64,000 bases of DNA from the NCBI GenBank assembly GCA_036785375.1, contig JAWMAR010000006.1, forward strand, positions 11,904,001 to 11,968,000, written 5' to 3'. A program made the translations under genes and the position numbers. Shown here one piece after another: positions 1 to 63,932 of this stretch (position 1 is the first letter of the stretch; each line of letters opens with the position of its first letter). The notes under the pieces are model-generated. The model ran no database searches. It was not told the DNA's origin and saw only the letters and a list, made by a program, of their open reading frames with translations. This stretch comes from Leucoraja ocellata (lineage: Eukaryota).

Positions 1-2914
1 ACCTGGAAGCAAAGAAAGAAACATAGGTAGTTTACAACCAACAGTATGAACTTTGAATTTTCCTATTTTAGGTAACTTCTAACAAAGCCCCCCCCCCCCC
101 CCTTCTGTGCACCACCTGGATTCACACGTATTTCACCCCTCCTGTAAGTGAGGATGCCTTAGAATCATAGAGGCATACTGCGTGGGAAAAGGCCCTTCAG
201 CCCCATTTGACCACACCAGCCAACGTCCTAGCTAAATAGTCCCACCTGCCTATGTTTGATCCATACACCTCCAAACCAGTCCTATCGATGTACCTGTCGA
301 ACTTTGCGATAGTCCCTGCCTCAACAACCTCTCCTGGCAGCTCGTTCCATACACTCACCACCCTTTGTATGAAAATTTGACCCCTCAGATTCCTATTAAA
401 TGTTTGCACCTTAAACCCATGTCCTCTGGTCCTCTATTCCCTTTCTCTGCACAAGAGACTCTGTGCATCTAACCAATCTATTCCTCTCATGATTTTCTAC
501 ACCTCAATCAGATCACCCTCATCCTCTTGTGCTCCAAGGAATAGAGACCCAGCCTGCTCAAACTCTCCCTATAGCTCAGATCCTCGAATACTGGCAACAT
601 CCTTGTAATTATTCTCTGTACCCATTCCAGCTTGACAACATCTTTCCTATAACATGGTGAACATAATACCCTTAATGCGGCCTCACCAGCATCTTATATA
701 ACTCTAGCATGACCTCCCAACATCTATACTCGATACACTGCTGAAGTCCAATGTGCCAAAAGCCTTTTTGACCACCCTATCTACATGTGGCTCCTCCTTC
801 ATGGAATTATGTACCTGTACTCTTAGATCCCCCTGGTCTATAACACTCCCAAGGGCCCTATCATTCACTGTGTAGGTCCTGCCCATGTTTGACTTTCCAA
901 AATGTAACACCTCACACCTTGGTTCCATCAACCATTCCTCAGCCAACTTGGCCAGCTGATCAAGATCCTGCTGTAAGTTAGCACATTTTCACTACCTGCA
1001 ATACCATCTGAAAACTTGTTAATCTTCCCATGTACATTGTCACCCAAATCATTGATATGGATGACAAACAGTAACAGGCCCAGCAGCAAACCCTGAGGCA
1101 CATCACTGGTCACAGGCATCCATTCTAAGAAGCAACCTTCCACCATCACCCTTTGCTTCTTTCCATAAAGCCAATTTTCTATCCATTCAGCTACCTCTCC
1201 TTGGATCCCGTGCGATCTGACCTTCCAAGGCAGCCTACCATGCAGAACCTTGTAGAATGCTTTGCTGAAGTCTATTTATACACATCTATAACTGTGCCCT
1301 CATCAACCCTTTTGGTCACATCTTCAAAATCTCAATCGGATTCATGAGGCACAAAGTCCCATAAACAAAACCATGCTGACTTTCCCTAATCAGCCATTGC
1401 CCAACTAAATACATGTATATTGTATCCCTCAGAATACTCTTCAGTAAATTTCCAACTACATGTGTTAAGCTCACAGGCCTATAGTCCCTGCCTTTGCTCT
1501 GCAGCCCTTTTTGAATCACGGATAGATCTGATCAGGCCCAGAAGATTTGACTGCCTTCATACACGATAATACCTTCAGCACTTCTTCAACTGCAATATTA
1601 ACTTTAATGAATGACTTTAAGATTTGCTTTCCCAAAGTCCATCGGATATCATACCTGGTCGTACCGGATCTGAATATGTAATTACCAAACAATTTGACCC
1701 CAGGTCGACACCTACAATATGTTGCGTGAATAACAATATGTACAGAAACACTGTGGAATATTTTGATAAGTACCGTCTACATAGAGGCTGTAGCGTTGCA
1801 GCGCGTATGGACCCAGTGAGGAACTGTTAATGGTCTTCTCTATAAATACATCGTAAACATCTTCACGGCTGATGGGTTCCATGGTGGACACGTTTTGGAA
1901 TGAACAATTAGCTGTCACTCGGGTGCTGTGAACCATTACCTCACTGCAAAAACAGCAAAAGACATTTGTAGTAAGTGGAAACGAATTTGGTGCAAAGTTG
2001 TTTGCAGTGTTCGCAAGAGAACAGCTGAAAATTTTCCGTGGCTGATTACAAGAGGAGAAGCAATGGTCAGAGATATCTAAATTTGTCCGTCTCTGCCACA
2101 TCAGCTCCTCTAATGAGTCATCCCATTTTAGGGCATCAGAGATGTCCACTTTCTTGATAAATGTGTATTAGCCTTGCTTGATTAAATGGGTCACTCCTCC
2201 ACGTCATCTTCTAGATCTGTTCTCACATCACCCTCACCCAGATGACACAAGGACAGAGTTCATATCGTCCCTTGCTTTCACCACACCTCGTCCAGGTTTC
2301 TCACCCCTACTGCAATTTGTCTGAAAAGGGCCCGATCCAAAACTTTGTCTAGTCATTTGCTGTCTGTCCCGTTGAGATACTCCAGTATATTATGGGGTTT
2401 TTTTCTGATAGCATTTATATTAACTTTGCATTGAAATGTGTGGGAAATTTGCTTATGAGACTTTTGGGTTTGCAACTTGGAAGCAGAGCATGAACAATTG
2501 GAAGTTAGACAAAAATGCTGGAGGATCTCAGCGGGTGAGGCAGCATCTATGGAGAGAAGGAATAGGCAACGTTTCGGGTTGAGACAAAGGAATTTTGCGT
2601 AGCATAATAGAAAAGTTACTCTAGTTACCTGAATGATTCCACAACACACTTTAATAATGTTGCATTGATACTGCTGTTATTGAACAGGTCCGTGAGCTGT
2701 GGGCATTAAGAAAAATTGTGTCAGAATGAGAGGTGAAAAAGGAAGGATGAAGTCATATATCAGCAGGGAAGTATCTTGTACAAATCTCTCACCTCAGCTG
2801 CAATCATGGTTGCTGTATCTGAAGGGTTTGCTTGAATTTCTTCAATAGACAGACTGTCAACAATGAATGTCACGTTGTACTCAATGGGATTTATTACCTC
2901 GATTGGAACTGGAA
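1..2914 (-). CDS. SEA module M1 (divergent outer type)
   Basis: Exons A 2908/2914-2793, B 2696-2629 (LTDLFNNSSINATLLKCVVESFS), C 1943-1774, D 1669-1655 (DPVRP, GT donor). E begins at position 2 after acceptor tttgcttccag and is cut by the window edge. Confidence 0.85.
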
Positions 2915-5900
2915 CTGTGGTAATAGAGTAAGCAATTCAACATTTGAAATCAGAGATTACATTTCATTTGTGCTCAGTTTGTTGTGAAGTGGTCTAGGTC
3001 ATGCTGAGGTTGTGCAATGCTTTTTGTTATTTTGATTATTTTTTTTACAATCATAAGGGGAAAACAAACTGCTGTTATAACCTAGCATTCCAGCAGTATC
3101 TGAGAAGGGAATTGACAGTTGACAGTCAATTTCAGATCTGAAATGTTGTCTATCCATTTCCTTCCGCGGGTATTGCCGGACTTATTGAGTGCCTCCAGTA
3201 TTTTGTTGTTCGCTCCAGTTTCCAGCATCTGTAACCTCTTATGTCTCCCCTTTGGAATCAAAGCCTCTACTTTTCCTTCTTCATCCACAATTTCCCTTCA
3301 ATTATAATGAAAGCTATAAAATATCATACTGGGAGATCCAATCCTGATCATCCACCACCTGACTCATTGTAGTGATAGTAGGCGGAGTACAACCCAGTTT
3401 TGGTTTTATTTTGTGGTTCTTTGCGAATTATGTATGCTTTTAGTACTTGGAGATCTCCATATACTTGATGTGAGCAGAGCATGTAGCTGAATTACCTGGA
3501 TTCTCTTGATTGTTTGGATTATTTAGTTCAGGAACAATTTGTGGCTCTGTAAAGAAAAATTCAAAGAAACAATTGGAATAATGTTATTAAAAGCTATGAA
3601 ATCATCATAAATTTGTACAAACAGAAAATGCTCCAAACTAATTCAAGGATATGTGCCAAGACAATTGGAATTCAAATTTCTTGGATCTTATAGTACACCT
3701 GTTATATGTGTTTTGACCTTAATTTTTGTTATCTCGCTCTTTGTCAGCTGACCCAGTCATAAAATCTTTCGCCAAATAAATCACAACAATTTGCTTCTCA
3801 GGTTATTTTAATGTTTGTTTCTCTCTAAATGAAAGCAGTGGTGCAACATGGGAATTATTTGTCAAGGTCCACTGGTAAGACAGTTTTTCAAGTACAGGTG
3901 TCTAAAAGGCATTTGATTTAAGAAGTCATAAAAAAACATGTTCAACTTTGATGAAATTCTGCACAGTTTAAGCAACAGATGGAGAAGAACAAATATAACA
4001 TGAGACAATTGTTTGATGAATTGATACAAACTCACCATTGACATTGTGCTGTACAGTGAAATCTGAAAACAAACAAGGAAATATATGTAGGACCAATCCA
4101 ATGGCATGAACTTTAAATTCTTCAAATTTAGTCAAACTTTAAAAACCCACCAACCACAGCAACACTGTGTCCGACTTGGGCTCGCACTTATTAAACTCCC
4201 CCCCTTGCCCTCCATCTACATTCCTTCTGCTGGCATCAAATTTGCAACTTCAATCTTTTTCCCTCACACTTTATGTTTTTTCGTCATTCACCTTCGTCCA
4301 ACCTTCTGCGTATCTAAACTCCACCTCACCTGTGTCCACCTATTAATGACGTGCTTTGTACTGCCTCCCTTCTCTTCCAGCTTTCTTCTCCCCCCACCAC
4401 CCCACAATCAGTTCGAAGAAGGATCTCGTGCTGAAGTGTCACCCATTCACGTTCTCCAGTGATGCTGCCTGACCCACTTTGTGCCTTCTAAAAAAACATG
4501 TAACTTTTTAATGGAGTTTTTTTTTGGGTCTACTTGAACATTTATCAGGAAGAAGACATTCTTATGAGTGGGTCATATCAGTGTGGCAGTGTGTTTGTGC
4601 AAAGGCAGACTCCGAAGAGCAAGACTGAATGATTTTAAGGTTTGCTTTCTCAGATCCCATTGGATATCATGCCTGGCTGTCACTGGTCTAAATATGTAAA
4701 TACCTAAGAACTTGTCTATAAATCAATAGTTACCGTAGATTGGACAAATACAATATGAAGAAAAACACGAAAGAATATTTTGATAAGTACCGTCTACATA
4801 GAGGCTGTTGCTTTGCAGTTCGTATGAACCCAGTGAGAAAATGCCATCGGTCATCTCGCTAAATTCAGCATAAACAACTTCTCGGTTGATGGGTTCCATG
4901 GTGGACACATTTTGGAATGAACAATTAGCTGTCACTCTGGTGCTGTGAACCATTTCCTCTCTGCGAAAAAGCAAAAGACATTTGTGATGTGCAAAATAAT
5001 TTAATGCAAAGTTGTTTGCAATGCCAGCAAGTGCACAGCTGAAATGTTGCCATGGCCCATTACTGGTGTCTAAGCAATGGGTTGAGAAATCTGATTCTCA
5101 ATTTGTCCGTCTCCAGCCCATCTTCAACTACGATGTGGCTTCCCATTCTATGGCATCAATTATGTCATATTAGCCTTATATATATGTAGCCTTATGATAT
5201 ATATTAGCCTTGGCTGTTTTAGATGGATCCCTCACCCAATTCACCCGAGATCTGCTCTCACACCACCCTCATCCAGACGGAACAAGGATAGAGTTCCCCC
5301 CATCCTTAGTTTACACCCCACCTGTCACTAACACCACCTAATGCATTTGCTGCACCTTATGTGGTGTCTGATACGTTTGCAAGACCAAACAGTATCTAGG
5401 TGACTTTTTCGCCAAACATGTGCGGTCATCCAAGGTCTGCTGGAAATCATGGTTCAAAAACAATTTAACTCCCTTTCCATTCCCAAACCAATCTGTCTGT
5501 ACTGGGCGTCATCCATTGCAGAGTGAGGCCACACTCAAACTGGAGGAACAGCACCTCATATTTCGAAGAGTAGCTTAGAGCCTTATTTGTCTGTCTCACT
5601 TAAGCGATATTTTCGGTGACTGCTGGCAACTGTCACAGTCATAGCAGGTCACCGAAAAACCGGCGGCTGGACCTCCCTACGACAAAACTTTGCCTCGCCA
5701 GCGTCTACAGAATTGCTGCCTGACTCACAAGGAGACTCTGGTACATTGTACCTTTTTCCTGGTAGAATTTATATTAATTCTACATGATATTTGTGGGAAA
5801 TTTGCTTATTAATTTTTAATTAAATTGAAATTAATGCGTTTGCAAATTGGAATTATTGAGTGTTATCAATTTTATCATTTAATAGGAAAGTTATTTTGAG

Positions 5901-8900
5901 TTACCTGAATGATTCCACAACACATGTCAAGAATGTAGCATAGATATTGCTATTTTCGAACAGTTCGGTGAGCTGAAAGCAATAACAATAATTGAGTCAG
6001 AATGCGAAATAAAAAGGGTACGATGAAGTAAAACAACATCAGTGAATTAACTTGTAAATTCTCTCACCTCATTTGCAATCATGGTTGCTGTTTCTGAAGG
6101 GTTTGCTTGAATTTCTTCAATAGACAGATTGTCAACAACGAAAGTCACGTTGTATTCAATGGGATTTGTTACCTCGGTTGGAACTGGAAGTGTGGAAATA
6201 GAGTAAGCAATTTAGCATGTTGTGAGAACCACGATTTTCAAATAGTTTAAAAACTGTTTCCCAGTACTGGATTTCTACAGAGTTTAAGCAACAGATGGAG
6301 AAGAACAAATGTAGCTTAAGACAATTATTTCATGCATTTGATACAAACTCACCATTGACATTGTGCTGTACATTGAAATCTGAAAACAAACAGAGAAATA
6401 TAGGTTGAAATTTAAATGTTCAAGTTTAGGCAGCCTTTAAAAACCCACCAACCACAACAACAACTGGGCATGCACCTAGTAAACTCCTCCCCCTTGCCCT
6501 CCCTCTACATTCCTTTTTCTGGCTTCAAATTTGCAACTCTTCAATCCTTTTCCCTCACACATATGTTTTTTCGTCTCTGGCCTTTGTCCAACCTTCTGCG
6601 TATCTAAACTCCACCTCACCTGTGTCCACCTATTAATGACGTGCTTTGTACTGCCTCCCTTCTCTTACAGCTTTCTTCTCCCCCCACCACCCCACAATCT
6701 GTCTGAAGAAGGATTTTGAGCTGAAATGTCACCCATTCACGTTCTCCAGTGATGCTGCCTGACCCGCTGAGTTACTCTAGCACTTTGTTTCTTCTAAAAA
6801 AGCATGCAACTTTTTAATGGGGTATTTTTTTCCCTCTCCTTGAACATTTATCAGGAAGAAAACCCTTTTGTGAGTGGGTCATACCAGTGAGGCAGTGTGT
6901 TTGTGCAAAGGCAGGCTCCTAAGAGCAAGACTGTGAATGATTTTAAGGTTTGCTTTCTCAGATCCTATAGGACATCAGAGAGAGTTCATGTGGACAAGCT
7001 TTTCCCTTTGAGAATAGTGAAGATTCAAACAAGAGGACATGACTTCAGAATTAAGGAACAGAAGTTTAGGGGTAATATGAGGGGGAACTTCTTTACTCAG
7101 AGAGTGGTAGCGGTGTGGAATGAGCTTCCAGTGGAAGTGGTGGAGGCAGGTTCATTGGTATCATTTAAAAATAAATTGGATAGGCATATGGATGAGAAGG
7201 GAATGGAGGGTTATGGTATGAGTGCAGGCAGGTGGGACTAAGGGGAAAAAACAAATAATTTGTTCGGCACGGACTTGTAGGGCCGAGATGGCCTGTTTCA
7301 GTGCTGTAATTGTTATATATATCATGCCTGGTTGTCCCTGATCTAAATATGTAAATACCAAATAACTTGTCTATAAATCAATAGTTACTGTAGATTGGAC
7401 AAATACATTACGAAGAAAAACACCAAGGAATATTTTGATAAGTACCATCTACATAGAGGCTGTTGCTTTGCAGTTCGTATGGCCCCAGTGAGGAAATGTC
7501 TTTGGTCATCTCGCTAAATTCATCATAAACATCTTCTCGGTTGATGGGTTCCATGGTGGACACATTTTGAAATAAACATTCAGCTGTCACTCTGGTGCTG
7601 TTAACCATTTCCTCTCTGCGATAAAGCAAAAGACATTTGTGATAAGTGTAAAAGAATTTAGTGCAAAGTTGTTTGCAATGCCAGCAAGAGCACAGCTGAA
7701 ATGTTGCCGTGGCTCATTACTGGTGTCTAAGCAATGGTCAGAGAACTCCGACTCTCAATTTGTCCGTCTCCAGCCCATCTTCAACCACGATGTGGCTTCC
7801 CATTCTCGGGCATCCATGATGTCGTCTTTCTAGTGTAAATATATATTAGCCTTGGCTGTTTTAGAAGGATCCCTCACCCAAGTCTCCCTTAGATCTGGTC
7901 TCACACCACCCTCACCCAGACGGAACAAGGATAGAGTTCCCCCCATCCTCAGTTTACACCCCAACGGTTACTAACACCACCTAATGCATTTGCTGCACCT
8001 TATGTGGTATCCTATACGTTGGCAAGACCAAACAGTATCTAGGTGACTTTTTCGCCAAACATGTGCAGTCATCCAAGGTCTGCTGGAAATCCTGGTTGAA
8101 AAACAATTTATCTCCCTTTCCATTCCCAAACCAATCTGTCTGTCCTGGGCCTCATCCATTGCAGAGTGAGGCCACACTCAAACTGGAGGAACAGCACCTC
8201 ATATTTCGAAGAGTAGCTTAGATCCTTATGTATTTGTCCCACTTAAGCGATATTTTCGGTGACTGCTGGCGACTGTCACAGGCGTAGCAGGTCACCGAAA
8301 ACCCGGCAACTGGACCCCCCTACGACAAAACTTTGCCTCGCCAGCGACTACAGAATTGCTGCCTGACTCACAAGGAGACTCTGGTACATTGTACCTTTTT
8401 TCTGGTAGAATTTATATTAATTCTACATGATATTTGTGGGAAATTTGCTCATTAATTTTTAATTAAATTGAAATGAATGCGTTTGCAAATTGGAATTATT
8501 GAGCGTTATCAATTTTATCATTTAATTGGAAAGTTATTTTGAGTTACCTGAAGGATTCCACAACACATGTCAAGAATGTAGCATTGACATTGCTATTTTC
8601 GAACAGTTTGGTGAGCTGAAAGCAGTAACAATAATTGAGTCAGAATGAGAAATAAAAAGGGTACGATGAAGTAAAACAACATCAGTGAATTAACTTGTAA
8701 ATTCTCTCACCTCATTTGCAATCATGGTTGCTGTTTTTGAAGGGTTTGCTTGAATTTCTTCAATAGACAGATTGTCAACAATGAAAGTCACGTTGTATTC
8801 AATGGGATTTCTTACCTCGGTTGGAACTGGAAGTGTGGAAATAGAAAAAGCAATTTAGCATGTTGTGAGAACCACGATTTTCAAATAGTTTAAAAACTGT

Positions 8901-11900
8901 TTCCCAGTACTGGATTTCTACAGAGTTTAAGCAACAGATGGAGAAGAACAAATGTAGCTAAAGACAATTATTTCATGCATTTGATACAAACTCACCATTG
9001 ACATTGTGCTGTACATTAAAATCTGAAAACAAACAAAGAAATATGGGTTGAACTTTAAATGTTCAAGTTTAGGCAACCTTTAAAAACCCACCAACCACAA
9101 CAACATCTGGGCATGCACCTAGTAAACTCCTCCCCCTTGCCCTCCATCTACATTCCTTTTCCTGGCCTCAAATTTGCAACTCTTCAATCCTTTTCCCTCA
9201 CACTTTATGTTTTTTCGTCTCTGGCCTTTGTCCAATCTTCTGCGTATCTAAACTCCACCTCACCTGTGTCCACCTATTAATGACGTGCTTTGTACTGCCT
9301 CCCTTCTCTTACAGCTTTCTTCTCTCCCCACCACCCCACAATCAGTCTGAAGAAGGATTTTGAGCTGAAATGTCACCCATTCACGTTCTCCAGTGATGCT
9401 GCCTGACCCGCTGTTACTCTAGCTCATTGTTTCTTCTAAAAAAGCATGCAACTTTTTAATGGGGTATTTTTTCCCTCTCCTTGAACATTTATCAGGAAGA
9501 AAACCCTTTTGTGAGTGGGTCATACCAGTGAGGCAGTGTGTTTGTGCAAAGGCAGGCTCCGAAGAGCAAGACTGTGAATGATTTTAAGGTTTGCTTTCTC
9601 AGATCTTATAGGATATAATGCCTGGTTGTCCCTGATCTAAATATGTAAATACCAAAGAACTTGTCTAAAAATCAATAGTTACCGTAGATTGGACAAATAC
9701 AATACGAAGAAAAACACCAAGGAATATTTTGATAAGTACCATCTACATAGAGGCTGTTGCTTTGCAGTTCGTATGGCCCCAGTGAGGAAATGTCTTTGGT
9801 CATCTCGCTAAATTCATCATAAACATCTTCTCGGTTGATGGGTTCCATGGTGGACACATTTTGAAATAAACATTCAGCTGTCACTCTGGTGCTGTTAACC
9901 ATTTCCTCTCTGCGATAAAGCAAAATACATTTGTGATAAGTGTAAAAGAATTTAGTGCAAAGTTGTTTGCAATGCCAGCAAGAGCACAGCTGAAATGTTG
10001 CTGTGGCTCATTACTGGTGTCTAAGCAATGGTTAGAGAAATCCGACTCAATTTGTCCGTCTCCAGCCCATCTTCAATCACGATGTGGCTTCCCATTCTCG
10101 GGCATCCATGATGTCGTCTTTCTAGTGTAAATATATATTAGCCTTGGCTGTTTTAGAAGGATCCCTCACCCAAGTCTCCCTTAGATCTGCTCTCACACCA
10201 CCCTCACCCAGACGGAACAAGGATAGAGTTCCCCCCATCCTCAGTTTACACCCCAACTGTTACTAACACCACCTAATGCATTTGCTGCACCTTATGTGGC
10301 ATCCTCTACGTTGGCAAGACCAAACAGTATCTAGATGACTTTTTCGCCAAACATGTGCAGTCATCCAAGGTCTGCTGGAAATCCTGGTTGAAAAACAATT
10401 TATCTCCCTTTCCATTCCCAAACCAATCTGTCTGTCCTGGGCCTCATCAATTGCAGAGTGAGGCCACACTCAAATTGGAGGAACAGCACCTCATATTTCG
10501 AAGAGTAGCTTAGATCTTTATGTATTTGTCCCACTTAAGCGATATTTTCGGTGACTGCTGGCGACTGTCACAGGCGTAGCAGGTCACCGAAAAACCGGCA
10601 ACTGGACTCCCCTACGACAAAACTTTGCCTCGCCAGCGTCTACAGAATTGCTGCCTGACTCACAACGAGACTCTGGTACATTGTACCTTTTTTCTGGTAG
10701 AATTTATATTAATTCTACATGATATTTGTGGGAAATTTTCTCATTAATTTTTAATTAAATTGAAATTAATGCGTTTGCAAATTGGAATTATTGAGCGTTA
10801 TCAATTTTATCATTTAATTGGAAAGTTATTTTGAGTTACCTGAAGGATTCCACAACACATGTCAAGAATGTAGCATTGACATTGCTATTTTCGAACAGTT
10901 CGGTGAGCTGAAAGCAGTAACAATAATTGAGTCAGAATGAGAAATAAAAAGGGTGCGATGAAGTAAAACAACATCAGTGAATTAACTTGTAAATTCTCTC
11001 ACCTCATTTGCAATCATGGTTGCTGTTTCTGAAGGGTTTGCTTGAATTTCTTCAATAGACAGATTGTCAACAATGAAAGTCACGTTGTATTCAATGGGAT
11101 TTCTTACCTCAGTTGGAACTGGAAGTGTGGAAATAGAGTAAGCAATTTAGCATGTTGTGAGAACCACGATTTTCAAATAGTTTAAAAACTGTTTCCCAGT
11201 ACTGGATTTCTACAGAGTTTAAGCAACAGATGGAGAAGAACAAATGTAGCTTAAGACAATTATTTCATGCATTTGATACAAACTCACCATTGACATTGTG
11301 CTGTACATTGAAATCTGAAAACAAACAGAGAAATAAGGGTTGAACTTTAAATGTTCAAGTTTAGGCAACCTTTAAAAATCCACCAACCACAACAACAACT
11401 GGGCATGCACCTAGTAAACTCCTCCCCCTTGCCCTCCATCTACGTTCCTAGTTCTGGCTTCAAATTTGCAACTCTTCAATCCTTTCCCCCAGACTTTATG
11501 TTTTTTCGTCTCTGGCCTTTGTCCAACCTTCTGCGTATCTAAACTCCACCTCACCTGTGTCCACCTATTAATGACGTGCTTTGTACTGCCTCCCTTCTCT
11601 TACAGCTTTCTTCTCCCCCCACCACCCTACAATCTGCCTGAAAAAGGATTTTGAGCTGAAATGCCACCCATTCACGTTCTCCAGTGATGCTGCCTGACCC
11701 GCTGAGTTACTCTAGCACTTTATTTCTTCTAAAAAAGAATGCAACTTTTTAATCGGGTATTTTTTTCCTTCTCCTTGAATATTTATCAGGAAGAAAATCC
11801 TTTTGTGAGTGGGTCATACCAGTGAGGCAGTGTGTTTGTGCAAAGGCAGGCTCCGAAGAGCAAGACTGTGAATGAATTTAAGGTTTGCTTTCTCAGATCC

Positions 11901-53900: not shown

Positions 53901-56900
53901 TTTGTGAGTTACCTGAATGATTTCACGTCACATTTTAAGAATGTTGCATTGACACTGCTGTTCTCAAACAGGTCTGTGAGCTGGGGGCAAGAAAAATTGT
54001 GTTAGAAATAGACATAAAAAGGGGATGAATAAGTAGTATATCAATAGAAAACTAATTGGTAAACTCTCTCACCTCATTTGCAATCATGGTTGCTGTTTCT
54101 GAAGGGTTTGCTTCAATTTCTTCAATAGACAGATTGTCAACAATGAAAGTCACGTTGTATTTAATGGGATTTGTTACCTCGGTTGGAACTGGAAGTGTGG
54201 AAATAGAGTAAGCAATTTAGCATGTTGTGAGTACCACGATTATCAAATAGTTTAAAAACTTTTTCCCAGTACTGGATTTCTACAGAGTTTAAGCAAGAGA
54301 TGGAGAAGAACAAATGTAGCGTAAGACAATTATTTCATGCATTTGATACAAACTCACCATTGACATTGTGCTGTACATTGAAATCTGAAAACAAACAGAG
54401 AAATAAAGGTTGAAATTTAAATGTTCATGTTTGGGCAACCTTTAAAAACCCACCAACCACAACAACAACTGGGCATGCACCTAGTAAACTCCTCCCACTT
54501 GCCCTCCATCTACATTCCTTTTTCTGGCTTCAAATTTGCAACTCATGTTTCCTTTCCCTCACACTTTAGGTTTTTTCGTCTCTGGCCTTTGTCCAACCTT
54601 CTGCGTATCTAAACTCCACCTCACCTGTGCCCACCTATTAATGACGTGCTTTGTACTGCCTCCCTTCTCTTACAGCTTTCTTCTCCCCCCACCACCCCAC
54701 AATCTGCCTGAAGAAGGATTTTGAGCTGAAATGTCACCCATTCACGTTCTCCAGTGATGCTACCTGACCCGCTGAGTTACTCTAGCACTTTGTTTCTTCT
54801 AAAAAGCATGCAACTTTTTAATCGGGTATTTTTTTGCCTCTCCTTGAATATTTATCAGGAGGAAAACCCTTTTTTGAGTGGGTCATACCAGTGAGGCAGT
54901 GTGTTTGTGCAAAGGCAGGCTCCGAAGAGCAAGACTGTGAATAAATTTAAGGTTTGCTTTCTCAGATCCTATAGGATATCATGCCTGGTTGTCCCCGATC
55001 TAAATATGTAAATACCAAAGAACTTGTCTATAAATCAATAGTTACTGTAGATTGGACAATTACAATATGAAGAAAAACACCAAGGAATATTTTGATAAGT
55101 ACCGTCTACATAGAGGCTGTTGCTTTGCAGTTCGTATGGCCCCAGTGAGGAAATGTCTTTGGTCATCTCGCTAAATTCATCATAAACATCTTCTCGGTTG
55201 ATGGGTTCCATGGTGGACACATTTTGAAATAAACATTCAGCTGTCACTCTGGTGCTGTTAACCATTTCCTCTCTGCGATAAAGCAAAAGACATTTGTGAT
55301 AAGTGTAAAATAATTTAGTGCAAAGTTGTTTGCAATGCCAGCAAGAGCGCAGCTGAAATGTTGCCGTGGCTCATTACTGGTGATAAAGCAATGGTCAGAG
55401 AAATCTGACTCAATTTGTCCGTCTCTAGCCCATCTATAGCCAGAGGGAGACCATATTTAAGTTGGAGGAAAATCACCTCATTATCTAATGTGTGGATTTC
55501 GAGCTTAACAACATGAATCATTTTACGTGACGACCTAAAAACTAACTGTATGAACAATGAGTTGTTCAATTTTACGTGTCAACCTACAAATGCCCTTCTA
55601 CCCCACAATTTCCCCCCCCCACTCTTCCCTGTGCTACACTTGAATATGCACCCATTTTTCCCTTTTCCCTTCACCCCTTCCCTACCCCCATTCTCCTCCT
55701 CCACTATGCTTCCTCAACTTTCATGATTAATTTGACTTCTATGCCTAACTCCCTATATTGAACCTTTTGTCTTCTCATCTCAGGATTTTCTGTAACCATT
55801 TGCCAATCAACTGCTCCCTCCCCATCACTTGTATCCCCGTATCACTTGCCACACTTTGTCATCCCTTTCCCACCTCTCTTGCAGCTTTCTCACCCCTACT
55901 GCAATCAGTCTGAAGTAGGGCCCGACCAAAAACTCTGCCAACCCATGTTCTCCAGATTTGCCGACTGACCCGCTGAGATAATCCAGCACATCGTGTCTTT
56001 CTCTGTTAGAATTTATATTGACTTTGCACTGATATTTGTAGGAAATGTGTTTATGAGATTATCATCTTTACCATTTGGAATCACTGTGCATTAACAATTT
56101 GGAGACAAAGGAATGCAATTTTCATGATTTAATTGAACATTTTTTTGTGAGTTACCTGAATGATTTCACGTCACATTTTAAGAATGTTGCATTGACACTG
56201 CTGTTCTCAAACAGGTCTGTGAGCTGGGGGCAAGAAAAATTGTGTTAGAAATAGACATAAAAAGGGGATGAATAAGTAGTATATCAGCAGAAAACTAATT
56301 GGTAAACTCTCTCACCTCATTTGCAATCATGGTTGCTGTTTCTGAAGGGTTTGCTTGAATTTCTTCAATAGACAGATTGTCAACAATGAAAGTCACGTTG
56401 TATTTAATGGGATTTGTTACCTCGGTTGGAACTGGAAGTGTGGAAATAGAGTAAGCAATTTAGCATGTTGTGAGTACCACGATTATCAAATAGTTTAAAA
56501 ACTTTTTCCCAGTACTGGATTTCTACAGAGTTTAAGCAAGAGATGGAGAAGAACAAATGTAGCGTAAGACAATTATTTCATGCATTTGATACAAACTCAC
56601 CATTGACATTGTGCTGTACATTGAAATCTGAAACCAAACAGAGAAATAAAGGTTGAAATTTAAATGTTCATGTTTAGGCAACCTTTAAAAACCCACCAAC
56701 CACAACAACAACTGGGCATGCACCTAGTAAACTCCTCCCACTTGCCCTCCATCTACATTCCTTTTTCTGGCTTCAAATTTGCAACTCTTCAATCCTTTCC
56801 CCCAGACTTTAGGTTTTTTCGTCTCTGGCCTTTGTCCAACCTTCTACGTATCTAAACTCCACCTCACCTGTGTCCACCTATTAATGACGTGCTTTGTACT

Positions 56901-59900
56901 GCCTCCCTTCTATTACAGCTTTCTTCTCCCCCCACCACCCCACAATCTGCCTGAAGAAGGATTTTGAGCTGAAATGTCACCCATTCACGTTCTCCAGTGA
57001 TGCTACCTGACCCACTGAGTTACTCTAGCACTTTGTTTCTTCTAAAAAGCATGCAACCTTTTAATCGGGTATTTTTTTGCCTCTCCTTGAATATTTATCA
57101 GGAGGAAAACCCTTTTTTGAGTGGGTCATACCAGTGAGGCAGTGTGTTTGTGCAAAGGCAGGCTCCGAAGAGCAAGACTGTGAATGAATTTAAGGTTTGC
57201 TTTCTCAGATCCTCTAGGATATCATGCCTGGTTGTCCCCGATCTAAATATGTAAATACCAAAGAACTTGTCTATAAATCAATAGTTACTGTAGATTGGAC
57301 AATTACAATATGAAGAAAAACACCAAGGAATATTTTGATAAGTACCGTCTACATAGAGGCTGTTGCTTTGCAGTTCGTATGGCCCCAGTGAGGAAATGTC
57401 TTTGGTCATCTCGCTAAATTCATCATAAACATCTTCTCGGTTGATGGGTTCCATGGTGGACACATTTTGAAATAAACATTCAGCTGTCACTCTGGTGCTG
57501 TTAACCATTTCCTCTCTGCGATAAAGCAAAAGACATTTGTGATAAGTGTAAAATAATTTAGTGCAAAGTTGTTTGCAATGCCAGCAAGAGCGCAGCTGAA
57601 ATGTTGCCGTGGCTCATTACTGGTGATAAAGCAATGGTCAGAGAAATCTGACTCAATTTGTCCGTCTCTAGCCCATCTATAGCCAGAGGGAGACCATATT
57701 TAAGTTGGAGGAAAATCACCTCATTATCTAATGTGGATTTCGAGCTTAACAACATGAATCATTTTACGTGACGACCTAAAAACTAACTGTATGAACAATG
57801 AGTTGTTCAATTTTACGTGTCAACCTACAAATGCCCTTCTACCCCACAATTTCCTCCCCCACTCTTCCCTGTGCTACACTTGAATATGCACCCATTTTCC
57901 CCTTTTCTCTTCACCCCTTCCCTACCCCCATTCTCCTCCTCCACTATGCTTCCTCAACTTTCATGATTAATTTGACTTCTATGCCTAACTTCCTATATTG
58001 AACCTTTTGTCTTCTCATCAGGATTTTCTGTAACCATTTGCCAATCAACTGCTCCCTCCCCATAACTTGTATCCCCGTATCACTTGCCACACTTTGTCAT
58101 CCCCTTCCCACCTCTCTTGCAGCTTTCTCACCCCTACTGCAATCAGTCTGAAGTAGGGCCCGACCAAAAACTCTGCCAACCCATGTTCTCCAGATTTGCC
58201 GACTGACCCGCTGAGATACTCCAGCACATCGTGTCTTTCTCTGTTAGAATTTATATTGACTTTGCACTGATATTCGTAGGAAATGTGTTTATGAGATTAT
58301 CATCTTTACCATTTGGAATCACTGTGCATTAACAATTTGGAGACAAAGGAATGCAATTTTCATGATTTAATTGGAAATTGTTTTGTGAGTTACCTGAATG
58401 ATTTCACGTCACATTTTAAGAATGTTGCATTGACACTGCTGTTCTCAAACAGGTCTGCGAGCTGGGGGCAAGATAAATTGTGTTAGAATTAGACATAAAA
58501 AGGGGATGAATAAGTAGTATATCAGCAGAAAACTAATTGGTAAACTCTCTCACCTCATTTGCAATCATTTTTGCTGTTTCTGAAGGGTTTGCTTGAATTT
58601 CTTCAATAGACAGATTGTCAACAATGAAAGTCACGTTGTATTTAATGGGATTTGTTACCTCGGTTGGAACTGGAAGTGTGGAAATAGAGTAAGCAATTTA
58701 GCATGTTGTGAGTACCACGATTTTCAAATATGTTTAAAAACTGTTTCCCAGTACTGGATTTCTACAGAGTTTAAGCAACAGATGGAGAAGAACAAATGTA
58801 GCTTAAGACAATTATTTCATGCATTTGATACAAACTCACCATTGACATTGTGCTGTACATTGAAATCTGAAAACAAACAGAGAAATAAAGGTTGAAATTT
58901 AAATGTTTGTGCAAAGGCAGGCTCCGAAGAGCAAGACTGTGAATGAATTTAAGGTTTGCTTTCTCAGATCCTATAGGATATCATGCCTGGTTGTCCCTGA
59001 TCTAAATATGTAAATACCAAAGAGCTTGTCTATAAATCAATAGTTACTGTAGATTGGACAAATACAATATGAAGAAAAACACCAAGGAATATTTTGATAA
59101 GTACCGTCTACATAGAGGCTGTTGCTTTGCAGTTCGTATGGCCCCAGTGAGGAAATGTCTTTGGTCATCTCGCTAAATTCATCATAAACATCTTCTCGGT
59201 TGATGGGTTCCATGGTGGACACATTTTGAAATAAACATTCAGCTGTCACTCTGGTGCTGTTAACCATTTCCTCTCTGCGATAAAGCAAAAGACATTTGTG
59301 ATAAGTGTAAAATAATTTGGTGCAAAGTTGTTTGCAATGCCAGCAAGAGCACAGCTGAAATGTTGCCGTGGCTCATTACTGGTGATAAAGCAATGGTCAG
59401 AGAAATCCGACTCACAACTTGTCCGTCTCCAGCCCATCTATAGTCCGAGGGAGACCATATTTAAGGTGGAGGAAAATCATCTCATTATCTGATGTGTGAA
59501 TTTGGAGCTTAACAATATGAATCATTATACGTGTCAACCTACAAACTAACTGTATGAACAATGAGTTGTTCAATTTTACGTGTCAACCTACAAATGCCCC
59601 TCTACCCCACAAATATTCCCCCACTCTTCCCTGTGCTACACTTGAATGTGCACACATTTTCCACTTTTCCCTTCACTCCTTCCCTACCCCATTCTCCACT
59701 TCCACTATGCTTCCTCAACTTTGATAATTAAGTTGTCTTTTATGCCTAACTCCCTATATTAAACATAGAAACATAGAAAATAGGTGCAGGAGTAGGCCAT
59801 TCGGCCCTTCGAGCCTGCACCGCCATTCAATATGATCATGGCTGATCATCCAACTCAGTATCCTGTTCCTGCCTTCTCTCCATGCCCCCTGATCCCTTTA

Positions 59901-62900
59901 GCCACAAGGGCGACATCTAACTCCATCTTAAATATAGCCAATGAACTGGCCTCAACTATCTTCTGCGGCAGAGAATTCCAGAGATTCACCACTCTCTGTG
60001 TGAATATTGAACCCTTTGTCTTCTCATTTTAGGATTTTCTGTAACCATTTGCCAATCAACTGCTCCCTCCCCATCACTTGTATCCCCGTATCACTTGCCA
60101 CACTTTGTCATCCCCTTCATATCTCTCTTGCAGCTTTCTCACCCCTACTGCAATCAGTCTGAAGTAGGGCCCGACCAAAAACTCTGCCAACCCATGTTCT
60201 CCAGATTTGCCGACTGACCCGCTGAGATACTCCAGCACATCGTGTCTTTTTCTGTTAGAATTTATATTGACTTTGCACTGATATTTGTAGGAAATGTGTT
60301 TATGAGATTATTATCTTTACCATTTGGAATCACTGTGCATTAACAATTTGGAGACAAAGGAATGCAATTTTCATGATTTAATTGGAATTTTTTTTGTGAG
60401 TTACCTGAATGATTTCACGTCACATTTTAAGAATGTTGCATTGACACTGCTGTTCTCAAACAGGTCTGTGAGCTGGGGGCAAGAAAAATGGTGTTAGAAT
60501 TAGACATAAAAAGGGGATGAATAAGTAGTATATCAGCAGAAAACTAGTTGGTAAACTCTCTCACCTCATTTGCAATCATGGTTGCTGTTTCTGAAGGGTT
60601 TGCTTGAATTTCTTCAATAGACAGATTGTCAACAATGAAAGTCACATTGTATTTAATGGGATTTGTTACCTCGGTTGGAACTGGAACTGTGGAAATAGAG
60701 TAAGCAATTTAGCATGTTAAGAGTACCACGATTTTCAAATAGTTTAAAAACTGTTTCCCAGTACTGGAATTCAACAGAGTTTAAGCAACAGATGGAGAAG
60801 AACAAATGTAGCGTAAGCCAATTATTTCAAGCATTTGATACAAACTCACCATTGACATTGTGCTGTCCATTGAAATCTGAAAACAAACAGAGAAATATAG
60901 GTAGAACTTTAAATGTTCAAGTTTAGGCAACCTTTAAAAACCCACCAACCACAACAACACCTGGGCATGCACCTAGTAAACTCCTTCCACTTGCCCTCCA
61001 TCTACATTCCTTTTTCTGGCTTCAAATTTGCAACTCTTCAATCCTTTCCCTCACACTTTATGTTTTTCCGTCTCTGGCCTTTGTCCAACCTTCTGCATAT
61101 CTAAACTCCACCTCACCTGTGTCCACCTATTAATGACGTGCTTTGTACGGCCTCCCTTCTCTTACAGCTTTCTTCTTCTCTCCCCACCACCCCACAATCA
61201 GTCTGAAGAAGGATCTTGAGCTGAAATGTCACCCATTCACGTTCTCCAGTGATGCTGCCTGACCCGCTGAGTTACTCTAGCACTTTGTTTCTTCTAAAAA
61301 AGCATGCAACTTTTTAATGGGGTATTTTTTTCCCTCTCCTTGAATATTTATCAGGAAGAAAATCCTTTTGTGAGTGGGTCATACCAGTGAGGCAGTGTGT
61401 TTGTGCAAAGGCAGGCTCCGAAGAGCAAGACTGTGAATTAATTTAAGGTTTGCTTTCTCAGATCCTATAGGATATCATGCCTGGTTGTCCCCGATCTAAA
61501 TATGTAAATACCAAAGAACTTGTCTATAAATCAATAGTTACTGTAGATTGGACAAATACAATATGAAGGAAAACACCAAGGAATATTTTGATAAGTACCG
61601 TCTACATAGAGGCTGTTGCTTTGCAGTTTGTATGGCCCCAGTGAGGAAATGCCATCGGTCTTCTCGCTAAATATATCATAAACATCTTCTCGGTTGATGG
61701 GTTCCATGGTGGGCACATTTTGAAATAAACATTTAGCTGTCACTCTGCTGCAGGTTACCATTTCCTCTCTGCGATAAAGCAAAAGTCATTTGTGATAAGT
61801 GCAAAAGAATTTAGTGCAAAGTTTTTTGCAATGCCAGCAAGAGCACAGCTGAAATGTTGCCGTGGCTCATTACTGGTGTCTAAGCAATGGTCAGAGAAAT
61901 CCGACTCTCAATTTGTCCGTCTCCAGCCCATCTTCAAGCACGATGTGGCTTCCCATTCTAGGGCATCCATGATGTCGTCTTTCTAGTGTAAATATATATT
62001 AGCCTTGGCTGTTTTAGATGGATCCCTCACCCAAGTCTCCCCTAGATCTGCTCTCACACCACCCTCACCCAGACGGAACAATGATAGAGTTCCCCCCATC
62101 CTCAGTTGACACCCCAACTATTACTAACACCACCTAATGCATTTGCTGCACTTTATGTGGTGTCCTATACGTTAGCAAGACCAAGCAGTATTTACGTGAC
62201 TTTTTCGCCAAACATGTGCGGTCATCCAAGGTCTGCTGGAAATCCTGGTTGAAAAACAATTTATCTCCCTTGAAATTCCCAAACCAATCTGTCTGTCCTG
62301 GGCGTCATCCATTGCAGAGTGAGGCCACACTCAAACTGGAGGAACAGCACCTCATATTTCGAAGAGTAGCATAGATCCTTATGTATTTGTCCCACTTAAG
62401 TGATATTTTCAGTGACTGCCGGCCACTGCCATAGTCGTAGTAGGTCACCGAAAAACCGGCAACTGGACCCCCCTACAACAAAACTTTGCCTCGCCAGCGT
62501 CCACAGAATTGCTGCCTGACAAACTACCAGACTCTAGTACATTGTACCTTTTTCTGGTAGAAGTTATATTAATTCTACATGATATTTGTGGGAAATTTGC
62601 TTATGAGATTAATGCGTGTGCAAATTGGAATTATTGAGTGTTAACAATTGGAAATTAAAGGATGCGGTTTTTATCATTTAATAGGAAAGTTATTTTGAGT
62701 TACCTGAAGGATTCCACAACACATGTCAAGAATGTAGCATTGACATTGCTATTTTTGAACAGGTCGATGAGCTGAAAACAGTAACAATAATTGAGTCAGA
62801 ATGAGAAATAAAAAGGGTACGATGAAGTAAAACATCATCTGTAAACTAACTTGTAAAAAGCTCTCTCACCTCAGATGCAATCATGGTTGCTGTTTGTGAG

Positions 62901-63932
62901 GGGGTGTCTTGAATTTCGTCAATAGACAGGTTGTCAACAATGAATGTCACGTTGTAACTAGTGGGATTTGATTCCTCGACTGGAACTGTGGAAATAGAGG
63001 AATTCATTTAGCATGTTGCATGTACCACGATATTTCAATGGTTTGACAACTGTTTCCCTGTAATGGAATTAGTTGCAGCTGAGCAACAGATCAAAAAGAA
63101 CAAATGTGATCTGAGGCAATTGTTTGATGCATTTGAGTGAAATGTTGCACAAGATGTCGACTGGAAAATTTGTGGGTTGTATCTAGCTTTGGCCGAGAAA
63201 TCTGATTCAAAAATACTTTTGTTAAAAAAAAACCTTGCGAACAGCACAGAGAGTTTTCAATTCATTCATTTCTCAACCAAGATTGTATTTGTGAATAAAG
63301 GGCAAGGCATCATTTCACGAGTTTCAACAAATATTCTTGCAGAATATGGGTGCTGGATGTGTCATGTAAGCAGTGAACAAGCAAAGAAACCGGAAACAAT
63401 TCAATGGAAGCCCAAACTCACCAATGACAATGGGCTGCACTGTGTAACCTGGAAGCAAAGAAAGAAACATATGCTGTTTACAACCAACAGGATCAACTTT
63501 GAGTTTTCCAATTTTAAGTATCCTCGAACAAATTGCACCCTTCCCCACGTCCCTCTCCTGTGCCCCAACTGGCACAAATTTTTCCTCTCTTTAAGTCTCT
63601 TTAAGACTTTAAGATTCACTTTCCCAAAGCCCATTGGACATCAAACCTGATCCTCCTGGATCTGAATATGTAATTACCAAAGGTCTTGACTCCGTCAACA
63701 CCAACGGTAGATGGCAGGAAATAGAATACATAGAAAAAGTTGAGGATTATTTTGATAAGTACCATCAACATAGAGGCTGTCAATTTGCAATGGATATTGT
63801 CCCAGAGTGGTCATCTTATAGGTCCGCTCTCTAAATACATCATAAACCACTTCTTGCTTGATGGGTTCCATGGTGGACACATTTTGGAATGAACAATCAG
63901 CTGTAACTCTGGTGCTGTTAGCCATGACCTCT
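1..63932 (-). CDS. MUC16: Internal part of a very large spliced MUC16/CA125-like tandem SEA-domain glycoprotein gene (26 complete SEA domains plus one partial; no start, stop, signal peptide or TM segment in window)
   Basis: Repeated exon C peptide INREDVYDEFSEMTKDISSLGPYELQSNSLYVD resembles the MUC16 SEA C-terminal motif LNREQLYWELSKLTNDIEELGPYTLDRNSLYVNG (recalled, not searched). Exon A has YNVTFIVDNL (cf. FTLNFTITNL) and exon B has LTDLFENSSV..KC (cf. LKPLFKNTSV..SGC). Two conserved Cys per module. AG/GT boundaries and phases (1-0, 0-2, 2-1, 1-1, 1-1) splice in frame. Orthology to MUC16 is not proven. Confidence 0.8.
160..1560 (-). mobile_element. Decayed CR1/HER1-type LINE, RT and 3' portion, in the M1 D-E intron
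   Basis: Frameshifted ORF pieces carry CR1 ORF2 motifs: DYRPVSLT..VG, SQHGF, VTSDVPQG.LLG.LLFVIHINDL, CEVLHFGKSN, FIQRVVSVWNELPGEVVEAGT. Boundaries approximate. Confidence 0.9.
2500..2585 (-). mobile_element. Short Penelope-like terminal-repeat fragment
   Basis: The reverse strand reads gtctcaacccgaaacgttgcctattccttctctccatagatgctgcctcacccgctgagatcctccagca, the same motif family as the ...gatgctgcctgacccgctgagttactc... segments in the array introns. Family call is from recall. Confidence 0.55.
4036..6183 (-). CDS. SEA module M2
   Basis: A 6183-6068, B 5972-5905, C 4960-4791, D 4687-4673 (in-frame TGA, GC donor), E 4062-4036 (DFTVQHNVN). Confidence 0.85.
5200..5580 (+). mobile_element. Penelope-like (GIY-YIG) retroelement remnant in the B-C intron of M2; copies at about 7850-8220 (M3), 10140-10510 (M4) and 62000-62370 (M26)
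   Basis: Degenerate coding traces such as aagaccaaacagtatctaggtgactttttcgccaaacat (ETKRRLGDRFAEH-like) and gaggccacactcaaactggaggaacagcacctcatatttcg (EATLKLEEQHLIFR) resemble the Penelope GIY-YIG endonuclease C-terminus. Recognised from recall, not searched. Confidence 0.6.
5588..5720. mobile_element. MITE-like fragment with internal inverted repeat; copies at about 8235-8360, 10527-10650 and 62388-62520
   Basis: TTTTCGGTGAC-TGCT ... AGCA-G-GTCACCGAAAA inverted repeat inside a GC-richer patch beginning tgtcccacttaagcga. Found only in M2-M4 and M26. Confidence 0.45.
6353..8826 (-). CDS. SEA module M3
   Basis: A 8826-8711, B 8615-8548, C 7615-7446, D 7342-7328, E 6379-6353. Confidence 0.85.
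6480..6790 (+). mobile_element. Penelope-like 3' end remnant in the D-E intron (representative; present in M2-M26 except M16, M17 and M25)
   Basis: Pyrimidine-rich tract followed by ctgaagaagg...gaaatgtcacccattcacgttctccagtgatgctgcctgacccgctgagttactctagca. Confidence 0.5.
6973..7318 (+). mobile_element. 5'-truncated CR1-type LINE 3' end, unique to M3
   Basis: Interrupts the module consensus ctatagga|tatcatgcc. Encodes TRGHDFRIKEQKFRGNMRGNFFTQRVVAVWNELPVEVVEAG...GRWD* followed by a 3' UTR. Confidence 0.92.
8996..11118 (-). CDS. SEA module M4
   Basis: A 11118-11003, B 10907-10840, C 9909-9740, D 9636-9622, E 9022-8996. Confidence 0.85.
11288..13361 (-). CDS. SEA module M5
   Basis: A 13361-13246, B 13153-13086, C 12203-12034, D 11930-11916, E 11314-11288. 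Confidence 0.85.
12368..12920 (+). mobile_element. Penelope-like remnant in the B-C intron of core modules M5-M25 (representative copy)
   Basis: QRETIFKLEENHLI matches the EATLKLEEQHLIF trace of the M2-type intron. It is followed by a pyrimidine-rich tract and ctgaagtagggcccgaccgaaaac...gactgacccactgagatactccagca. Confidence 0.55.
13531..15597 (-). CDS. SEA module M6
   Basis: A 15597-15482, B 15389-15322, C 14439-14270, D 14166-14152, E 13557-13531. Confidence 0.85.
15767..17833 (-). CDS. SEA module M7
   Basis: A 17833-17718, B 17625-17558, C 16674-16505, D 16400-16386, E 15793-15767. Confidence 0.85.
18003..20549 (-). CDS. SEA module M8
   Basis: A 20549-20434, B 20341-20274, C 18918-18749, D 18645-18631, E 18029-18003. 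Confidence 0.85.
19405..19647 (-). mobile_element. 243-bp CR1/HER1 3' fragment in the B-C intron of M8
   Basis: aaacatagaaacatagaaa tail, reverse-complement match to 45840-46080, flanked by ATATT direct repeat. Confidence 0.9.
20719..23265 (-). CDS. SEA module M9
   Basis: A 23265-23150, B 23057-22990, C 21634-21465, D 21361-21347, E 20745-20719. Confidence 0.85.
22121..22363 (-). mobile_element. CR1/HER1 3' fragment, M9 copy
   Basis: Same element, site and ATATT flanks as 19405-19647. Confidence 0.9.
23435..25982 (-). CDS. SEA module M10
   Basis: A 25982-25867, B 25774-25707, C 24351-24182, D 24078-24064, E 23461-23435. Confidence 0.85.
24838..25080 (-). mobile_element. CR1/HER1 3' fragment, M10 copy
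   Basis: Same element, site and flanks. Confidence 0.9.
26152..28699 (-). CDS. SEA module M11
   Basis: A 28699-28584, B 28491-28424, C 27068-26899, D 26795-26781, E 26178-26152. Confidence 0.85.
27555..27797 (-). mobile_element. CR1/HER1 3' fragment, M11 copy
   Basis: Same element, site and flanks. Confidence 0.9.
28869..30943 (-). CDS. SEA module M12
   Basis: A 30943-30828, B 30735-30668, C 29785-29616, D 29512-29498, E 28895-28869. Confidence 0.85.
31113..33178 (-). CDS. SEA module M13
   Basis: A 33178-33063, B 32970-32903, C 32018-31849, D 31744-31730, E 31139-31113. Confidence 0.85.
33348..35436 (-). CDS. SEA module M14
   Basis: A 35436-35321, B 35228-35161, C 34265-34096, D 33992-33978, E 33374-33348. 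Confidence 0.85.
35605..37666 (-). CDS. SEA module M15
   Basis: A 37666-37551, B 37458-37391, C 36508-36339, D 36235-36221, E 35631-35605. Confidence 0.85.
37837..39677 (-). CDS. SEA module M16 (short D-E intron)
   Basis: A 39677-39562, B 39469-39402, C 38271-38102, D 37998-37984, E 37863-37837. Confidence 0.85.
38758..39000 (-). mobile_element. CR1/HER1 3' fragment, M16 copy
   Basis: Same element, site and flanks. Confidence 0.9.
39848..41688 (-). CDS. SEA module M17 (short D-E intron)
   Basis: A 41688-41573, B 41480-41413, C 40282-40113, D 40009-39995, E 39874-39848. Confidence 0.85.
40769..41011 (-). mobile_element. CR1/HER1 3' fragment, M17 copy
   Basis: Same element, site and flanks. 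Confidence 0.9.
41858..44174 (-). CDS. SEA module M18
   Basis: A 44174-44059, B 43966-43899, C 42769-42600, D 42496-42482, E 41884-41858. Confidence 0.85.
43256..43497 (-). mobile_element. CR1/HER1 3' fragment, M18 copy
   Basis: Same element, site and flanks. Confidence 0.9.
44344..47209 (-). CDS. SEA module M19 (LINE inserted next to the exon C acceptor)
   Basis: A 47209-47094, B 47001-46934, C 45257-45088, D 44984-44970, E 44370-44344. Confidence 0.8.
45288..46080 (+). mobile_element. Young 5'-truncated CR1/HER1-type LINE (793 bp), unique to M19
   Basis: Stop-free ORF2 C-terminus to 45985 (QRDLGVMVHQSLK, LYRVLVRPHLEYCVQFWSP, RRLRGDLIETYKILKG, FFTQRVVNLWNSLP), 3' UTR, (tttctatg)n tail, and putative TAA target duplication at 45285-45287 and 46081-46083. 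Confidence 0.96.
47378..49699 (-). CDS. SEA module M20
   Basis: A 49699-49584, B 49491-49424, C 48294-48125, D 48021-48007, E 47404-47378. Confidence 0.85.
48781..49022 (-). mobile_element. CR1/HER1 3' fragment, M20 copy
   Basis: Same element, site and flanks as 19405-19647. Confidence 0.9.
49869..51943 (-). CDS. SEA module M21
   Basis: A 51943-51828, B 51735-51668, C 50781-50612 (NSTIVT variant), D 50508-50494, E 49895-49869. Confidence 0.85.
52113..54188 (-). CDS. SEA module M22
   Basis: A 54188-54073, B 53980-53913, C 53025-52856 (NSTIVT variant), D 52752-52738, E 52139-52113. Confidence 0.85.
54358..56431 (-). CDS. SEA module M23
   Basis: A 56431-56316, B 56223-56156, C 55272-55103, D 54999-54985, E 54384-54358. 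Confidence 0.85.
56601..58669 (-). CDS. SEA module M24
   Basis: A 58669-58554, B 58461-58394, C 57515-57346, D 57242-57228, E 56627-56601. Confidence 0.85.
58840..60680 (-). CDS. SEA module M25 (short D-E intron)
   Basis: A 60680-60565, B 60472-60405, C 59274-59105, D 59001-58987, E 58866-58840. Confidence 0.85.
59761..60003 (-). mobile_element. CR1/HER1 3' fragment, M25 copy
   Basis: Same element, site and flanks as 19405-19647. Confidence 0.9.
60850..62985 (-). CDS. SEA module M26 (divergent, extra Cys)
   Basis: A 62985-62870 (VPVEESNPTSYNVTFIVDNLSIDEIQDTPSQTATMIASE), B 62771-62704 (LIDLFKNSNVNATFLTCVVESFR), C 61768-61599, D 61495-61481, E 60876-60850. Confidence 0.85.
63422..63932 (-). 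CDS. SEA module M27 (partial, divergent outer type; exons A and B lie beyond the window)
   Basis: C 63932-63763 (EVMANSTRVTADCSFQNVSTMEPIKQEVVYDVFRERTYKMTTLGQYPLQIDSLYVD), D 63661-63647 (DPGGS, GT donor), E 63448-63422 (GYTVQPIVI, donor gtgagt). Confidence 0.85.

Follow-up and report, generated by a model that had tools for sequence, protein, structure and literature searches.

Based on our data, segment D, a 15-nt stretch following exon C in each SEA module of a mucin-16-like array, is most probably an exon-like sequence that is skipped in the transcript contigs covering it, with a GT-to-GC donor change that would be a neutral passenger, arisen once and copied together with the amplification of the modules. 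In GC-type modules, as in one module of the GT type, exon C is joined straight to exon E; D changes at the rate of the intron, and individual copies are damaged by stops, a frameshift or the loss of splice sites. The window, that is the whole 64,000-nt stretch of DNA that was analysed, corresponds to positions 11904001-11968000 of contig C6; positions outside it are given as "w" followed by the extended window coordinate, and the w labels for one module may vary by 1-3 bases.

Positions 1..63932 of the window are, on the minus strand, a section of a mucin-16-like gene with 27 tandem SEA modules (M1 to M27). The array extends past both window ends, with seven further modules upstream of M27 and three downstream of M1, giving 37 modules in total on C6. 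Each module consists of exon C (170 nt), the linker exon E (27 nt), exon A (122 nt, except for 116 nt after M27) and exon B (68 nt). In M25, which serves as the reference GC module, exon C lies at 59105..59274 and exon E (DFN type), spliced directly to C in the contigs, at 58840..58866, followed by exon A at 58554..58675 and exon B at 58394..58461, all on the minus strand. The corresponding minus-strand positions are 63763..63932 for exon C and 63422..63448 for exon E (GYT type) of M27, and 1774..1943 for exon C of M1. An extra 51-nt linker exon, F (EPQIVP...QENP; 3496..3546, minus strand), is present in models P0001 and P0002; it occurs only after M2 within the window and once more upstream at w85513, and the Amblyraja models place it between two E-type exons.

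The gene is of a known kind for which skate models already exist. Among named proteins, the nearest are models labelled "mucin-16-like" from the skates Leucoraja erinacea and Amblyraja radiata, and model P0004 contains a stretch with 100% identity to exon C of M27. The Pfam cut-off for SEA is exceeded in P0004 and P0008, two of the matching models, and a single exon C by itself scores below it. The closest known systems are the MUC16 and mucin-16-like arrays (Pfam SEA PF01390; skate RefSeq XP_055514607-11, XP_032903216, XP_032902719), a name that rests on RefSeq labels together with PDB matches. As in MUC16, which bears many SEA repeats (PMC4046138; PMC1552070), the tandem SEA repeats would be preceded by an N-terminal region rich in Thr/Pro and followed by a membrane-type C-terminal segment, and P0004 matches the human MUC16 structures 8gkl and 7sa9. 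P0008 has its Thr/Pro-rich N-terminus some 24-30 kb upstream of the window; on the downstream side P0003 can be followed to residue 1164 of 1280, its hydrophobic tail falling past the DNA examined. Unlike human MUC16 with its repeat of 156 aa (PMC4046138), the repeat here has 129 aa (387 nt), and unlike the skate mucin models, all of which lack it, the genomic array contains segment D.

D is a 15-nt, AG-flanked segment that is found in 27 of the 27 window modules at a distance of 101-104 nt from exon C (103 nt in 23 modules, 104 nt in M1, M7 and M13, and 101 nt in M27); the earlier note on this DNA had described it at about 103 nt. It is a minus-strand feature, as the reverse-complement pattern search finds it and plus-strand patterns find none, and in a dispersed-repeat check the 40 segments scored among 63 candidates all lay in the two copies of the array described below, which is still compatible with D being a dispersed repeat. 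Within the window only M1 and M27 have a GT donor at D; all 25 other modules (M2-M26) have GC, and these donors and the flanks of M1 and M27 were correctly reported before. In M27 (63647..63661, minus strand) the context reads ttcag ATCCAGGAGGATCAG gtttga and in M1 (1655..1669, minus strand) ttcag ATCCGGTACGACCAG gtatga, and both copies have an AG acceptor, a GT donor and an open frame and are candidate exons. The GC copies, likewise on the minus strand, are situated at 61481..61495 (M26, skipped in contigs), 58987..59001 (M25), 57228..57242 (M24), 54985..54999 (M23), 52738..52752 (M22, CCG codon), 50494..50508 (M21, CCG codon), 48007..48021 (M20), 44970..44984 (M19), 42482..42496 (M18), 39995..40009 (M17), 37984..37998 (M16), 36221..36235 (M15), 33978..33992 (M14, TGG codon), 31730..31744 (M13), 29498..29512 (M12), 26781..26795 (M11), 24064..24078 (M10), 21347..21361 (M9), 18631..18645 (M8), 16386..16400 (M7), 14152..14166 (M6), 11916..11930 (M5), 9622..9636 (M4), 7328..7342 (M3) and 4673..4687 (M2). 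The donor is weakened further in M6, where the segment ends CCAA/gc, and in M4, where gcatta has lost the +5 G; these two changes and the variation of the second codon (CAG, CGG, CCG or TGG) are as previously noted. The common inner sequence ATC(A/G)GGGACAACCAG was only partly right: it fits 20 of the 25 GC copies, and M2 differs, as it reads ACCAGTGACAGCCAG with an in-frame TGA that had been overlooked. The stretch ATATCCTA directly after the GC donor resembles a minor-spliceosome donor, a resemblance that is absent from M27 and M3.

Across the 37 modules on C6, the donors of D comprise 27 GC, nine GT and one GA. Upstream of M27 their order is GT, GT, GT, GT, GC, GT, GC, and the earlier view of M1 and M27 as the outer modules has to be given up, since ten modules lie beyond them and two of the upstream copies are GC among GT. 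This interleaving implies that the symmetry of outer GT and inner GC modules is partly a product of the window boundaries. A second copy of the array at C864:420001-510000 contains 32 modules vs 37 on C6, and its long GC run has 20 modules vs 25. Its donors are 22 GC, nine GT and one GA, with the same lesions as on C6, and it is probably the other haplotype, differing by allelic length variation, or else an assembly difference.

Evidence for the skipping of D comes from transcript contigs spanning exons C to E. Eight of 24 public runs were mapped, of which five were informative and three, with raw reads, yielded no junction; the runs were taken as RNA by guess and may stem from related species, and contigs lose rare isoforms. 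The junctions covered belong to GC-type modules and one GT-type module, with those of M1 and M27, for M27 including the 3' end of exon C, outside the coverage. In five of five informative runs exon C was joined straight to exon E. No D was seen in transcripts from the eight mapped runs, in which rare inclusion would be invisible to contigs, nor did the contigs contain a joint of D to E made from a GC donor. With inclusion in none of the five informative runs, the term "microexon", in the sense of a used exon, is not borne out. In M25, contigs from X2, X3 and X4, three runs from three studies, share a joint from 59105 to 58866 that skips 238 nt with GT-AG ends; the C-E joint has depths of 9.1, 18.5 and 19.8, respectively, and the depth over D, which lies within the skipped intron, is 0. 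Joints with such GT-AG ends indicate spliced molecules, although the runs were taken as RNA by guess. The 417-nt contigs of these three runs fit the 387-nt unit without D, which we read as one unit plus a 30-nt overlap, and 432 nt would be expected with D.

A second contig from X3 and X4 agrees at 15 of the 15 alleles listed with the GT-donor module w-2213, which lies a short way past the downstream end of the window; the next best modules match at 11. The contig has 83 letters between exon C and the matched part of exon A, and the length predicted for this interval is 83 without D (E plus A) and 98 with D. In this genome the D of w-2213 carries a TAA. For M26-M27, exactly 27 letters separate C from A in a contig of X1, and the bin depths of X8 fit a full exon E and no D, as calculated from the depth table. 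X16 and X20, of each of which about 5-6% was sampled, gave no exon reads, and X23 gave eight reads and no joint. In the mapping to M26-M27, a short intronic repeat at 61200-61290 attracts tens of thousands of unrelated reads, and the results for these two modules are those among the rows listed.

The skate protein models agree with the contigs. In eight models, 47 of 47 array-type SEA ends enter exon E directly and D is present in none of them; of the other SEA ends, 15 pass into older linkers and three into the C-D intron. The models lacking D include M27-type ends (P0004, P0006, P0007) and an M1-type end (P0001). Automatic protein prediction often misses microexons, and the models, being predictions, are therefore given less weight than the contigs. 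Among 694 SEA ends in 103 fetched proteins of relatives, no D-like or 5-residue insert was found before the G/D-Y/F position, so that no homologue of D used as an exon appears in this set, and 583 of these ends continue with G/D/A/E plus an aromatic residue or His. The conserved SEA ending is YV[DN] followed by G/D and an aromatic residue, and human MUC16 aligns at this point as NSLYVNGF. Direct joining of C to E yields this ending, and inclusion of D would split it.

Besides, D changes at a rate like that of the intron, and its lesions fit neutral decay. In 13 representative modules that we chose from the 37, exon C shows 1.04 changes per site and the C-D intron 1.45; D as a whole has 1.67, and its middle nine bases have 2.33. 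Three stops are seen in D vs 2.5 expected under a simple neutral model with 25 changes, and none in exon C vs 5.8 expected (P about 0.003), in line with an exon C that is open in 37 of 37 modules. Among the nine GT copies, four are broken: w82749 contains a TGA and w-2214 a TAA, w80193 has only 14 nt, and w-5671 has lost the AG. Degradation is also seen in the GA copy. AG and an open frame are retained in 24 of the 25 GC copies. The edges of D change less: over the 20 nt of the acceptor (-20..-1) there are 16 changes, or 0.8 per site, vs 100 in 69 nt, or 1.45, in the intron. This gives P 0.013 with the window taken as fixed (0.008 if the AG is omitted) and P 0.24 when the window may be chosen freely. 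The terminal CAG shows no change among the 13 representatives, M6 with its CAA standing outside these.

A tree built from the intron stretch minus the donor dinucleotide (33 distinct of 37 rows) supports the claim that a single GT-to-GC change was copied through the array: one change suffices for GC, with a support of 87/86, which is under the starred level and with the bootstrap unsettled. The GC copies lie in a clade with four GT members, three of them broken, and this neighbourhood suggests that the GC change most likely hit an already idle segment. A separate clade of M1, M27, w70172 and w75080 (support 99/96) keeps AG, GT and an open frame in four of four copies, with donor changes at +3 (T in M27) and by a 10-nt deletion at w70172. 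Exon C differs at 0-4 positions among M3-M25. These near-identical inner modules and the different copy number on C864 suggest that unequal crossing-over or conversion carried the GC copy through the array. As one ancestral segment stands behind all copies, the 27 copies count as one event, and 25 identical GC sites in a tandem array should be read with caution as one mutation and not as 25 conserved signals.

The splice signals of D offer a plausible reason for its skipping. Its acceptors have 10-11 pyrimidines of 17 vs 12-15 in nine real acceptors, and no TGC occurs at -40..-4 in M1, M25 and M27, the three of 27 copies checked. In a simple count of matches over 11 donor positions, made without a trained model, the four GC copies scored reach 5-6 vs 6-8 for real GT donors; CAG/gcatga matches 6 of 11 and misses +4 and +6. 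Functioning GC donors tend toward a better match in the remaining consensus (PMC3167603; PMC2490688), and the GC donor of D has no compensating consensus, with further matches lost in M4 and M6. We therefore propose that D would fail exon definition, given its length of only 15 nt, the poorest pyrimidine tract compared and the lack of known microexon enhancer motifs. Skipping would preserve the conserved SEA ending. To assess chance resemblance, we required a YAG, 11 or more pyrimidines out of 17, an in-frame length of 9-30 nt and AG/GTR[AT]G; this strict pattern occurs 0.05 times per 8,452 nt in shuffled intron and is matched by two of seven real GT-module stretches tested.

This rare strict pattern, together with the somewhat conserved acceptor and the intact M1/M27 clade, is compatible with a past role of D as an exon or with a minor present one, and we keep both in consideration. 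As to its origin, we judge it slightly more likely that D is the remnant of a linker exon that existed briefly in skates than that it is a chance look-alike. Linker exons were gained and lost elsewhere in the gene, as seen from exon F and E-like remnants, which makes such a relic plausible. Three candidate relationships were rejected: exon E, not D, is homologous to the first linker exon in other MUC16 repeats (GYT/DFN vs GYH/DYH); the D-like stingray linkers that start with DQLEL or DNMEF are, by length alignment, 9-residue E-type linkers followed by exon A; and D as the tail of exon F is unconvincing, with local alignment P values of 0.018-0.52 for seven copies, uncorrected.

A minor present role could take the form of a live, regulated microexon in the M1/M27 GT clade that was lost in the other clade, where GC finished it. 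We consider this unlikely, even though the well-supported clade is intact in all four members, the acceptor is more conserved than the intron and the clade's own junctions fall outside the read coverage. Against it, M27-, M1- and w75080-type modules skip D in the skate models, the members of the closest clade pair are each altered at the donor (M27 and w70172), and the changes within D are so few that an open frame is likely by chance, as estimated from the stop rate; moreover, D would split the conserved SEA ending, and three of four GT members were already broken in the clade that holds the GC copies. The earlier proposal that GC silenced a working microexon is not supported, as a GT-type module skips D too, four of nine GT copies are broken and M1/M27-type models lack it. 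Were D nevertheless live in the GT clade, the array would provide a natural test of the effect of a GT-to-GC change on a microexon in near-identical contexts. A related scenario appears quite improbable to us: D would be included rarely, lengthening the linker in modules of the M1/M27 clade and serving as a poison exon in copies with a stop, and the GC-silenced module would have become the unit of amplification because it could increase 25-fold without a matching increase in mis-splicing. If true, the array would record splice-site selection deciding which repeat expands.

It is extremely improbable that the 25 GC sites function as weak donors of GC-AG introns and so let the linker vary by five residues per module. 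Such a system would fit the reported enrichment of GC donors in alternative splicing (PMC2490688) and the AG and open frame of 24 of the 25 GC copies, and a minor isoform would be hidden by contigs. However, only skipping is found in the five informative runs, including all GC-type contigs, the donor CAG/gcatga is uncompensated and weaker still in M4 and M6, M2 has a stop, and the near-identity of the copies would reflect recent amplification and not selection; the variable linker of the earlier note is therefore not supported. Very improbable, too, is a noncoding D whose ends act on splicing, either in the manner of a decoy or poison exon, or through recursive splicing at the terminal CAG/GTATGA, which would be used first as acceptor and next as donor and give the same C-E product. 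The contrast of conserved edges (acceptor 0.8 and terminal CAG 0 changes per site) with an interior at 2.33 and the stops in three copies would suit this idea, and recursive and direct splicing are indistinguishable in spliced contigs. Yet the edge signal is weak with a free window (P 0.24) and the edges had prompted the original notice, the donor was repeatedly lost or weakened (GC, GA, +3 T, deletion) while C-E splicing persists, the terminal CAG would face competition from an AG 15 nt upstream of it, and the introns, such as the 238-nt one of M25, are short.

Our preferred reading, a skipped exon look-alike with a passenger GC change, places D among pseudo-exons. This class covers cryptic or relic exons that are skipped despite plausible splice sites. 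D resembles its members in its AG and GT/GC flanks, its skipping in transcripts and its neutral decay with stops and lost sites, but unlike a typical pseudo-exon it is present in 37 tandem copies, so that the decay can be read along the array. With regulated microexons (3-27 nt, SRRM4-type; PMC12871342), D shares its size of 15 nt, a symmetrical phase and perhaps some conservation upstream of the acceptor, which is weak with a free window. The same source describes functional microexons as highly conserved and usually frame-keeping (PMC12871342), whereas inclusion of D is unseen, its frame is unconserved, its interior changes faster than the intron and TGC, a motif that is not universal, is missing from the three acceptors checked. 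The GT-to-GC change at +2 is likewise shared with GC-AG alternative introns (PMC2490688; PMC3167603), but use of the site is unseen and the remaining donor consensus offers no compensating match. D has the properties of a pseudo-exon and, in the modules covered by transcripts, does not behave as a functional microexon or a working GC-AG intron. A literature search, with most subscription papers outside its scope, found no paper on this skate array or on D. As a skipped exon look-alike within an already annotated gene type, D is of little significance in itself; its modest use lies in a 37-copy series of splice signals decaying in differing ways.

Some further features of the array were observed. 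The acceptor of exon A is AC in 15 of 26 modules and TG in two of 26 instead of AG, for example at 58676-58677 (M25) and 20556-20557 (M9) on the minus strand. An in-frame CAG lies 6 nt downstream of it, and its use would remove two residues; the contigs use the upstream position, giving a 122-nt exon A, but may derive from AG modules. E-like remnants without an acceptor are located near w-6514 (C6:11897486) and w84800, and one of them is apparently fused by deletion to the preceding intron. The A-B intron after the exon A ending at w69275 measures about 1.26 kb vs the usual 92 nt or so, due to an insertion, and exon B is intact at w68015. The D-E gap is 120 nt in M25 (58867-58986), M17 (39875-39994) and M16 (37864-37983) and about 600 nt elsewhere, and such shared deletions could serve to order the duplications. 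Within the D-E intron of M1 (about 40-1600) there is a long stretch without counterpart in the other modules, which by eye has the look of retroelement fragments. A second, more divergent SEA-exon cluster at C6:11635001-11675000, roughly 230-270 kb from the window, has a short intron after exon C. The donor of exon C in the array lacks the +5 G, the first 14 intron bases behind it (e.g. 59091-59104) show only two changes among 13 divergent modules, and a similar intron start is found in that distant cluster.
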